From positions 15,469 to 79,468 of the forward strand of contig ONCC01000012.1 of NCBI GenBank assembly GCA_900316235.1: DNA of 64,000 bases, read 5' to 3'. Shown here piece after piece: positions 7,478-59,436 of this stretch. The notes under the pieces are model-generated. The model was not told the origin of the DNA. It saw nothing but the letters and a program-made list of their open reading frames with translations, and did not search any database. This stretch comes from an uncultured Bacteroidales bacterium (lineage in GTDB: Bacteria > Bacteroidota > Bacteroidia > Bacteroidales > P3). The position numbers and the translations under genes are program-made. Position 1 is the stretch's first letter; the number at the start of each line of letters is the position of its first letter.

Positions 7478-7689
7478 CACAAAATTCTCGATACAAATGC
7501 AAGTGTCACGAAAGCTTTTTTACAATCGCACGCATTACCACCCCCTTTCCATTGTCCATTTCATGTTCCAATCCCATCATCATTTAACATTTATTAAGTT
7601 AATATTTCAACACTATGACCTCCGGGATTACCATTTTTTTCAAAGAATACCCGATTTCTAGCTTAATTCACTCTACCTGATAGCAATGA

Positions 7690-7795
7690 ACAACCTACCA
7701 TCTCCTTACCAACTCCCTACCAACTCCTACCGCAGTAGGTGTTGATAGGGTTATTATAGGGTTTTTGTTATTAACAATTGTTAACATTTATATTC
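7690..7795. repeat. CCTACC-decamer/palindrome intergenic repeat element, copy A
   Basis: CCTACCATCTCCTTACCAACTCCCTACCAACTCCTACC-GCA-GTAGGTGTTGATAGGGTTATTATAGGG followed by TTAACATTTAT. Same core as the copies at 27191, 39071 and 59341. An extra TTTAACATTTATTAAG box lies at 7583-7598. Confidence 0.8.
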
Positions 7796-7841: not shown

Positions 7842-7849
7842 TATTTTTG
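7842..7849 (+). promoter_or_regulatory. -7 box (TATTTTTG) with -33 TTTG for dapB
   Basis: TATTTTTG sits 28 nt before ATG 7877. TTTG at 7818-7821 gives a 20-nt spacer, matching the Bacteroides consensus geometry. Confidence 0.55.
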
Positions 7850-7876
7850 CAGTTTCGTTTTTAGAAGAGAAAGACA

Positions 7877-27104: not shown

Positions 27105-27126
27105 AATAGCATCTCCTTTCCGACTA

Positions 27127-27134
27127 CAAAGATA
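27127..27134 (-). promoter_or_regulatory. -7 box (TATCTTTG, minus strand) for the NUDIX gene
   Basis: Plus strand reads CAAAGATA, 23 nt upstream of ATG 27104. The same TACAAAGATACAAAA string precedes the gene at 38907. Confidence 0.5.
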
Positions 27135-27190
27135 CAAAAAAAGACCAAATCTCCTCCCGAGTACCCGGAACACCCCCTTCACGAGGGGTC

Positions 27191-27310
27191 AAACTCCTAC
27201 TTTGTACCTACCAACTACCTACCATCTCCTTACCAACTCCTACCACAGTGAGAGATGATAGGTCGTTCATTAAGTTAAATTTCGTCGTTTTAACATTTAT
27301 TAGGAAAGTT
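27191..27310. repeat. CCTACC-decamer/palindrome intergenic repeat element, copy B
   Basis: A 120-nt gapless alignment with 39071-39190 shows 12 mismatches (counted by hand). Confidence 0.85.
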
Positions 27311-27402
27311 CGTCTCTCAGGAACCATAGTATCGCTTTCGCGGAGGAAAAGACGGTTTAATGTTAAAAAAAACTAAAGTTTGCTCACAAATAATAAAAAT
27401 CG

Positions 27403-27410
27403 TATCTTTG
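27403..27410 (+). promoter_or_regulatory. -7 box (TATCTTTG) with -33 TTTG for the 1033 aa T9SS cargo gene
   Basis: TTTG at 27379-27382, a 20-nt spacer, then TATCTTTG. About 100-nt AT-rich leader to ATG 27516. Confidence 0.5.
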
Positions 27411-38995: not shown

Positions 38996-39070
38996 CAAAA
39001 TAAAATCAAAAACACGAATATTTTTTTCCACCCTCCCCCACCTCTCTCGTCAGAGGAAACAGGAACCACC

Positions 39071-39190
39071 AAACTCCTACTTTGCACCTACCAAAACCCT
39101 ACCAACTCCTTACCAACTCCTACCACGGTAGGAGATAATAGGTCGTTCATTAAGTTAAAATACGACGTTTTAACATTTATTAGGAAAGTT
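39071..39190. repeat. CCTACC-decamer/palindrome intergenic repeat element, copy C
   Basis: Gapless 108/120 match to 27191-27310. Contains the perfect inverted repeat CTCCTACC-AC-GGTAGGAG. Confidence 0.85.
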
Positions 39191-39430
39191 TACCCTGCGT
39201 CTACCGCAGCCCTGACATCCCTGCCGGCGGAGGTGAAATTTCTGTTAAAATTGGGTTGAAATGTTAAACTTTCTTAAAATTTCAGGGCAGAAATGTATTT
39301 TCAGGGCACTTTTTGCTTTATATACGGTGATGAACAGCTCTGCAGGAAGCTCGAGCAGCTTGTCGGACGGCATTGCGCCTACGCGCTGGGGCCAAAAGTG
39401 TGTTAAAAAAAGTTAAAACGAGTGTATCTT

Positions 39431-59340: not shown

Positions 59341-59436
59341 TACCTATCAAAACCTTATCAACTCCTAACCAACTCCTACCATGGTAGGAGTTGGTAGGGT
59401 GTTGGTAGGGTCTTCATAGGGTGTTTTACCCTACCT
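59341..59436. repeat. CCTACC-decamer/palindrome intergenic repeat element, copy D
   Basis: Perfect 26-nt palindrome CCAACTCCTACCATGGTAGGAGTTGG (59369-59394). It is flanked by CTATCAA/CTTATCAA/CTCCTAACC units on the left and GGTAGGG/GGTAGGG/ATAGGG units on the right. Confidence 0.85.

Follow-up and report, generated by a model that had tools for sequence, protein, structure and literature searches.

A 120-nt intergenic repeat in an uncultured Bacteroidales genome is a composite sub-type of a clade-restricted, modular, high-copy palindrome family

The stretch of DNA analyzed here, 64,000 nt in length and referred to as "the window", corresponds to C34:15469-79468 of genome G000, a 2.43-Mb MAG of 56 contigs with 52.8% G+C. 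Positions 27191-27310 of the window form an intergenic segment located between a divergent NUDIX gene and a downstream 1033-aa T9SS cargo gene. The segment aligns without gaps to positions 39071-39190, with 108 of 120 bases identical (90%; E = 2.5e-41 in a search of the whole genome); our recount agrees with the 12 mismatches given in the first-pass annotation of this DNA. We refer to the two segments as copies B and C. The first-pass annotation described a copy and a second copy 11.9 kb away; the pair is real, but in sensitive blastn searches G000 has ~10 full-length copies and ~117 loci sharing query positions 16–72. If there were only two copies, the pair would indicate a simple segmental duplication within the 64-kb window. 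Nothing beyond the first pairwise match favors this explanation, and the whole-genome BLASTN search, which returned many more than two copies, refutes it: the ~117 loci are spread over 40-plus contigs, and copies are also present in sister species and other MAGs.

The features of the window are listed in Table 1. The 120-mer was presented as an element; it is real, repeated, non-coding, and intergenic, but rather than being a unit, it combines a half-decayed palindrome with a separable module that we call T1. When the 10 G000 copies are aligned with their flanks, the common block measures ~123–137 nt, from (GGGGTC)AAACTCC to GGAAAGTT. The conserved block starts ~14 nt further left (~27177) than the 120-mer, with GGGGTC before AAAC in several copies; this left extension is based on sister-genome matches that cover query positions 678–815. 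Most of the parts named earlier were recovered. The phased repeats correspond to the 10/11-nt CCTACC units of the left arm, the inverted repeat keeps perfect symmetry in copy C (CTCCTACC-AC-GGTAGGAG) but has degenerated in copy B (where the second half is AGTGAGAG), the ATAGG repeats are right-arm units in decay, and the conserved tail is GTTAAA-N9-TTTAAC-ATTTATTAGGAAAGTT. The left arm of the 120-type is intact, its dyad is short, and its right arm (GGTAGGAGATGATAGGTCGTTC) has decayed. Hairpins of the GTTAAA type occur nine times genome-wide, versus 0.6 expected, and eight of the nine are inside 120-type copies; the stem is lost in four of eight copies of sister genome G012, and the loop varies between strains.

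Table 1. Positions of family members, their parts, and neighboring promoter boxes in the window
Feature	Positions	Strand	Remarks
Copy A	7583..7789	.	"sub-type A" composite, ~207 nt
Copy B, 120-type composite	27177..27314	.	27191-27310 plus ~14 nt left extension
Left arm of copy B, four phased C-rich boxes ACCTACCAACT/ACCTACCATCT/CCTTACCAACT/CCTACC	27206..27244	.	
Dyad center of copy B, CTCCTACC-AC-AGTGAGAG	27237..27254	.	degraded in copy B
Right arm of copy B in decay, ATGATAGGTCGTTCATTAA	27255..27273	.	GGTAGG boxes now GATAGG
Short AT hairpin, GTTAAA-N9-TTTAAC	27274..27294	.	
T1 motif, TTTTAACATTTATTAGGAAAGTT	27288..27310	.	
Copy C, 120-type composite	39057..39194	.	perfect 8-bp dyad
T1 module, T1 + 42 nt ending GGCGGAG	39171..39232	.	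62-nt strain indel
Copy D	59341..59436	.	stand-alone full palindrome, commonest family form
−7 box (TAnnTTTG) of the divergent NUDIX gene	27126..27140	-	context, outside the element
−7 box TATCTTTG of the downstream 1033-aa T9SS cargo gene	27403..27410	+	context, outside the element

Two features proposed for the left flank were not borne out. The −7 box TACAAAGATACAAAA, assigned to the shared flank, is the generic Bacteroidetes promoter box of the neighboring gene and lies at a variable distance, and the small hairpin with a compensatory change was not found in the other copies of the 10-copy G000 alignment. Eight of the 10 120-type copies are flanked by two divergent −7 boxes; the box of the T9SS cargo gene is 93 nt past the end of copy B. 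As single strands, the 120-mers of copies B and C have no significant structure (z = −0.9 and −0.8, respectively). At positions 27198-27207 (alignment columns 8–17), 120-type copies read GTAC-TTTG-TAC or, in about a third of cases, GTAC-AAAC-TAC. The two forms resemble a flipped mini-hairpin loop, and the loop of the GTTAAAA hairpin behaves likewise between strains; loop flips of small hairpins between copies are typical of template switching at quasi-palindromes.

The 120-nt form is a minor sub-type, comprising ~10 of the ~117 loci of a larger palindrome family whose core is (CCTACCAACT)n-CCRYGG-(AGTTGGTAGG)n. The majority of loci are long imperfect palindromes with the architecture (nCCTACCAACT) x 3–4, CCTACC-RY-GGTAGG, (AGTTGGTAGGn) x 3–4. 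Full palindromes span 60–95 bp, with three to four phased 10/11-bp units per arm, and gapless arm length ranges from 14 to 48 bp (median, 28 bp). Across the whole family, neighboring boxes are 10 nt apart in 196 cases and 11 nt apart in 231 (mean, 10.56 nt, one turn of B-DNA), in agreement with the helical phasing that the first-pass annotation proposed; the phased boxes lie around the dyad. Centers counted genome-wide are CCRYGG in most copies, and conservation is greatest at the palindrome center, fading outward. The 16-mer CCTACCAACTCCTACC occurs 140 times with up to one mismatch, 138 times inside family loci, whereas its reversed control has no occurrences; depletion of CCTACC outside elements was not seen in G000. 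The published RfxCas13d direct repeat also contains the 10-mer CCTACCAACT, a chance 10-mer match, and the ECF-sigma promoter motif was rejected because its sequence differs.

The window contains four family members, copies A to D. Copy D has a DNA fold of −23.2 kcal/mol (z = −5.2), and full palindromes reach ~−45 kcal/mol in 120-nt windows with RNA energy parameters. In copy A, a T1-like box is followed by a GC hairpin that has a T-run, then by a head (CTCTACCTGATAGCAATGAAC), the palindrome, and the T2 box (ATTAACAATTGTTAACATTT); the −7 box of dapB comes next, at 7843-7850. Sub-type A has 15 copies in the genome, with TTAACATTT at both ends and identical in every copy. The flanking boxes have a characteristic position in each composite: in sub-type A, the T1-like box is 150 nt to the left of the palindrome and the related box T2 is 37 nt to the right, and in the 120-type, T1 is 43 nt to the right. 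No T1-like box is found near 74 of 115 G000 palindromes.

T1 is found in 15 of the 37 species of the genus, mostly as a single copy. The conserved single-copy T1 (TTTTAACRTTTATTARGAAAGTT, 23 nt; G000 C10:2859-2881) is located 45 nt upstream of the −7 box of an rpsO-like gene, and it occupies this site in at least 10 species (loci L141-L147, L149, and L150), the DNA beyond T1 being unalignable. Judging from the N-terminus of its product, MYLTKEKKEEIF, the gene is probably rpsO, encoding ribosomal protein S15. We infer that the T1 within elements is a copy of the box found upstream of the rpsO promoter across the genus; at rpsO, the box could serve as an upstream promoter or activator site. In G006, a genome without palindromes, T1 is amplified to ~32 copies. 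A 330-nt intergenic element of G006 consists, in order, of T1, GGCGGCCTGTTTTCGAGAGTTTCG, a GC-rich variable part, a one-armed GGTAGG run, and a hairpin, TTAATAGATGTTAAAC-loop-GTTTAACATCTATTAA. In the copies of this element (L120-L131), the terminal hairpin has a 16-bp stem, and its 8-nt loop is reverse-complemented in 2 of 12 copies. Lastly, a metagenome contig from the same species as G000 (L174) has copy C without exactly the 62 nt of the T1 module, and there is no microhomology at the junction. Because T1 is separable, with its own single-copy site, its amplification in G006, and the 62-nt strain difference, we regard the 120-mer as a fusion of two modules. The intergenic region of copy C differs between strains in other ways. 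In the 39306 area, the window is without 21 nt (ATATGTAAGGAGTAATTATGC) that are present in five of six same-species contigs (L171-L176), the sixth of which ends before that stretch; the 21 nt include the ATG of a 49-aa ORF called in several of these contigs. In strain L176, 19 nt located between short direct repeats are missing from the same intergenic region.

The exact 34-nt core is confined, within the GTDB species set, to nine uncultured ruminant Bacteroidales MAG species. The palindrome family is confined to a subclade of one uncultured rumen genus, being present in 8 of its 37 species and in none of 24 other families. First-look candidate counts were 117 for G000, 132 for G012 (RUG11699), 148 for G026 (RUG429), 43 for G002, and 29 for G004, i.e., a five-fold range between sister species (29 to 148), with one to two candidate copies in each of three further species of the genus. 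Judged at the single locus compared, G000 is most closely related to the element-rich species.

Of nine 120-type copies in G000, seven have a counterpart at the orthologous site of G026 and/or G012. In ortholog pairs, the element is 83–100% identical in eight of nine cases and 70–75% identical in the ninth, with the adjoining intergenic flanks often at 33–78%. Copies B, C, C33, and C53 are 90–92% alike within G000 but 83–85% alike when compared with their own orthologs, and one strain has a copy B with the loop of copy C. The greater similarity of paralogs than of orthologs, together with the copy C loop in copy B, suggests from these sequence comparisons that gene conversion occurs between copies. 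The NUDIX site occupied by copy B is empty in G004, with unchanged neighbors; in G026 and G012, it has other palindrome forms and different downstream neighbors. Further copies are located at insertion/deletion or synteny boundaries. Among same-species contigs, copies B and C are present by sequence in every contig shown, and copy D is judged present in the three contigs shown by length only, the intergenic spacing of 598 nt being unchanged.

Two loci differ from their counterparts in sister species in ways that involve family members. G000 C48:1-560 and G026 L152:1094-1650 share a ~270-nt block that is 100% identical, although the flanking genes of the two species are only ~87% identical. Within the block are a 120-type copy together with its right flank and the promoter that follows; the identity could reflect recent exchange or strong constraint. 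At C15:32141-46966, G000 has an additional gene and a 13.4-kb ORF whose product has an end resembling a T9SS sorting domain. Between the same two neighbors, G012 (L165) has only a 120-type element, and G026 (L162) has the right-hand neighbor alone in common. A full palindrome is located at the edge of the extra DNA in G000.

Genes in G000 were called with a crude home-made caller (1850 genes, 84.5% coding). All 117 loci are intergenic. For the 108 loci for which the gap was classified, 47 gaps are divergent, 46 tandem, and 15 convergent; for 675 background gaps of ≥80 nt, the corresponding numbers are 160, 419, and 96. Hence, divergent gaps are ~two-fold enriched for elements, although more than half of the copies are outside divergent gaps, and convergent gaps are not enriched (15/108 versus 96/675). 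The nearest outward −7 boxes (TAnnTTTG) peak 100–140 nt from the palindrome center, with 52 of 115 in this range versus ~16 expected. Elements are also more evenly spaced than expected. Among the 71 same-contig neighbor gaps of G000, a 56-contig MAG with crude gene calls, only two (2.8%) are <5 kb, versus 25–28% in random placements; the coefficient of variation (CV) is 0.45 versus 0.90–0.97; and the median is 12.7 kb versus 10.2–10.8 kb, with no gap >30 kb. None of 2000 class-matched random placements was as extreme, for either the <5-kb share or the CV. Half palindromes are also found at a particular class of sites: a multi-copy gene, whose product starts with MAKQRFGINDAYRGTVGTV, is always preceded by a half palindrome, TTTTAACATTTTTT, and then a promoter-like TTGACA...TATTATATTATG. 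These sites are at contig ends (C43:1-700, C51:1-700, C47:11700-12700, C45:36800-36980, and C53:152400-152589), and the assembly breaks there.

Several lines of evidence bear on whether the family functions at the level of DNA or RNA. In 27 120-type copies from three species, the left-arm boxes are near-invariant and all variation is on the right side. Box conservation is thus independent of pairing, since the left-arm boxes are invariant even though the partner arm has decayed; the boxes recur at the helical period, as in a phased array. A structured RNA (a small RNA, a leader, a bidirectional terminator, or an mRNA stabilizer, as proposed for classical REPs) is a highly improbable explanation. 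In its favor, the full copies have strong hairpin potential, and sub-type A includes a terminator-like GC hairpin with a T-run. Against this, there are no compensatory pairs in the 27 120-type copies (pairing 85.7% versus 85.8% when shuffled), sense and antisense fold energies do not differ across 46 co-directional contexts (p = 0.70), and the Rfam search returned only tRNAs at the gathering score and only hairpin-like noise at permissive E-values. Moreover, elements are enriched in the region upstream of both promoters, which is not expected to be transcribed. A terminator role was rejected, given the lack of enrichment in convergent gaps and the lack of strand bias. We infer that the family is kept as double-stranded DNA sites, not RNA; with neither an Rfam match nor covariation, a DNA-level reading of the element is favored over an RNA-level one.

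Dispersed palindromic repeats of the REP, BIME, and MITE types are known mainly from Proteobacteria, where they occupy transcribed 3′ regions and are accompanied by a RAYT partner. Proposed roles for REPs include protein docking, e.g., of IHF or gyrase. REPs are defined as 20–40-nt hairpins, one end of which has an unpaired tag, GTAG or CGTC (PMC3733652). Like REPs, BIMEs, and REPINs (PMC3733652), the elements described here are high-copy, lineage-restricted, intergenic, imperfect palindromes with very unequal copy number among relatives. However, where REPs are single 20–40-nt hairpins, these are 60–95-bp palindromes of phased units, and the GTAG present in every GGTAGG box is internal rather than an unpaired terminal tag. 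REPs are mainly downstream of genes and are transcribed, whereas these elements are mostly upstream of promoters and between divergent genes; REPs accompany RAYT genes flanked by repeats, whereas no RAYT link was found here; and the even spacing is a further difference from REPs and REPINs. BrickBuilt, a MITE/minisatellite of Porphyromonas gingivalis, has 23-nt direct tandem units without spacers, leader and tail subunits, and 19 copies (PMC4596501). It shares with the present family its Bacteroidales host, a strictly intergenic location, modularity (modular heads and tails occur here too), species restriction, and proximity to promoters. The described architecture nonetheless sets the two apart, the present family having 10/11-nt units rather than 23-nt direct units, mirror-image arms around a dyad, and >100 copies. 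Because these defining features were tested and are absent, we do not file the family with REP/REPIN or BrickBuilt.

In plasmid R1, the 11-bp iterons of parC are bound by ParR. The boxes here resemble those of parC in recurring at every helical turn, in two sets on either side of a center, an arrangement that implies that binding is cooperative and on one face of the DNA; parC-type arrays are single plasmid loci, whereas the present family has ~117 dispersed chromosomal loci. Arrays of short, binding-site-like repeats in inverted orientation also resemble the TnsB sites of Tn7 and the ends of Mu and Tn3, where repeated transposase-binding sites confer target immunity over many kilobases (PMC9308760). 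Such arrays keep new copies at a distance, and the same effect could yield the even spacing seen here. Unlike for Tn7, Mu, and Tn3 ends, however, no transposase, terminal 8-bp end sequence, 5-bp duplication, or internal cargo was seen for the present elements, and the "ends" abut directly. Full-text literature searches found no published description of such a phased palindrome family.

The first-pass annotation did not recognize the element as a known IS end, REP, or Rfam motif, and this still stands: there is no Rfam match, and no fitting IS end or classical REP was found. It raised the possibility that the copies are terminal parts of an annotated mobile element; no annotated mobile element carries copies. 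A RAYT/IS200 partner was rejected because such genes are neither correlated with nor adjacent to elements. PF01797 is present in 46 of 61 Bacteroidales genomes irrespective of the element, G012 has no PF01797 match despite ~132 copies, and none of the four PF01797 matches of G000 has CCTACC boxes nearby. An rve-type (IS3/Tn7/Mu-like) transposase was likewise rejected, with a single gene in G000 that has no nearby boxes, and none in G004. No multi-copy transposase, and no IS at contig ends, was found in G000, and no parent IS of the kind expected for MITE-type repeats was found. An inverted pair 9.5 kb apart in G017 was rejected as transposon ends because housekeeping genes lie between its members. 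T1 and the palindrome have no match in viral contigs, arguing against phage origin. A HU-HIG protein was rejected as the reader of the boxes because strong PF18291 matches do not track the element; two of five weak HU-like genes adjoin a copy, which is within chance. No target-site duplication is visible beside 45 well-formed copies, and the cross-species empty sites are too diverged for base-level boundaries. Defined terminal inverted repeats, by which MITEs are recognized, were not found, conservation peaking at the center instead. The polymorphism seen comprises the empty NUDIX site in G004 and the 62-nt T1 strain difference; as whole elements, copies B, C, and D do not vary in presence among the same-species contigs shown (D by length). 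Outside the window, G000 does have a RAYT-type Y1 gene (C9:281-763, within C9:1-1150) with tandem arrays of another REP pair, GGGTAGCCAGCCAATTCATTGGCTGGG/ATGATGCCGTAGGCATC, on both sides. The arrangement resembles a classical REPtron, separate from the CCTACC family. Hairpins of CAGGGGTTTTAACCCCTG stand on either side of a second Y1 gene (C26:106274-106729).

The comparisons show that the 120-nt element represents one composite sub-type in a clade-restricted, modular, high-copy intergenic palindrome family. As for what maintains the family, we consider it somewhat probable that the elements are putative docking arrays for a sequence-specific protein, anciently dispersed and held by box selection and gene conversion. 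The boxes would dock the protein cooperatively on one face of the DNA, with the docking sites placed in untranscribed DNA 60–100 bp upstream of promoters. Dispersal would date to an ancestor shared by a few rumen species, its agent having left no recognizable transposase, and copies would since have been kept similar by selection on the boxes together with gene conversion between copies. Box conservation could, instead of selection, come from homogenization against >100 donor copies. Furthermore, the five-fold difference in copy number and the empty NUDIX site in G004 are behavior expected of selfish DNA, and they count against docking. Purely selfish, non-autonomous, MITE/REP-like DNA with no host function is a rather unlikely alternative, in which the arms would be arrays of transposase sites resembling two abutted ends. 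The even spacing would then be due to target immunity as in Tn7, Mu, and Tn3, since repeated transposase-binding sites can confer immunity over many kilobases (PMC9308760), and the bias toward promoter-upstream DNA would follow from long palindromes being tolerated in untranscribed spacers only. Clade restriction, very unequal copy numbers, the many sub-types with swapped flanking modules, the different forms at one locus across species, and the location of elements at structural-variation boundaries are all consistent with selfish DNA. By contrast, the lack of visible target duplications and of defined termini, conservation that is central and decays outward, RAYT genes that are uncorrelated and not box-flanked, the solitary rve transposase, and the failure to find a partner or multi-copy transposase or an IS at contig ends argue against it. 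So do the age of most 120-type copies, which are orthologous, and the finding that no same-species contig shown is without copy B, C, or D (B and C by sequence, D judged from its constant intergenic length).

The palindromes might also act without any protein, extruding as cruciforms between divergent genes and serving as supercoil sinks or domain barriers. The stable folds of full palindromes (z = −5.2; ~−45 kcal/mol per 120-nt window), the enrichment in divergent gaps, and the regular spacing would fit such a role, as would the established twin-domain supercoiling model, with negative supercoiling between divergently transcribed genes. We nevertheless consider cruciforms clearly improbable: the 120-type and other one-armed forms cannot extrude, yet their boxes are invariant; fewer than half of the copies lie in divergent spacers; and the 10.56-bp box period plays no part in a cruciform. 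Docking arrays remain the reading we prefer. A more specific proposal, which we put forward tentatively and regard as doubtful, is that the palindromes are fixed anchors of a lineage-specific chromosome-organizing or supercoil-managing system, in which a protein would polymerize along one face of the DNA on the three to four CCTACC boxes of each arm. Sites would be held every ~7–30 kb (median, 12.7 kb) in untranscribed promoter-upstream spacers, and at composites such as the 120-mer, a single arm would be enough. In that case, the family would represent the Bacteroidales equivalent of domain-boundary or gyrase/NAP-binding repeats and would have its own ruler built in.

The placement of the family, in promoter-upstream spacers that we read as untranscribed, is opposite to that of classical REPs, BIMEs, and MITEs. 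Taken together with the box-per-turn architecture and the even spacing, it points to a DNA-binding system that nobody has named. In practical terms, the repeats interrupt MAG assemblies in this clade and mark the boundaries of its rearrangements. If there is such a DNA-binding system, the ~100 sites per genome would be ready bait for its protein. The regular spacing of the sites provides a testable handle on how these small genomes organize or insulate transcription units.
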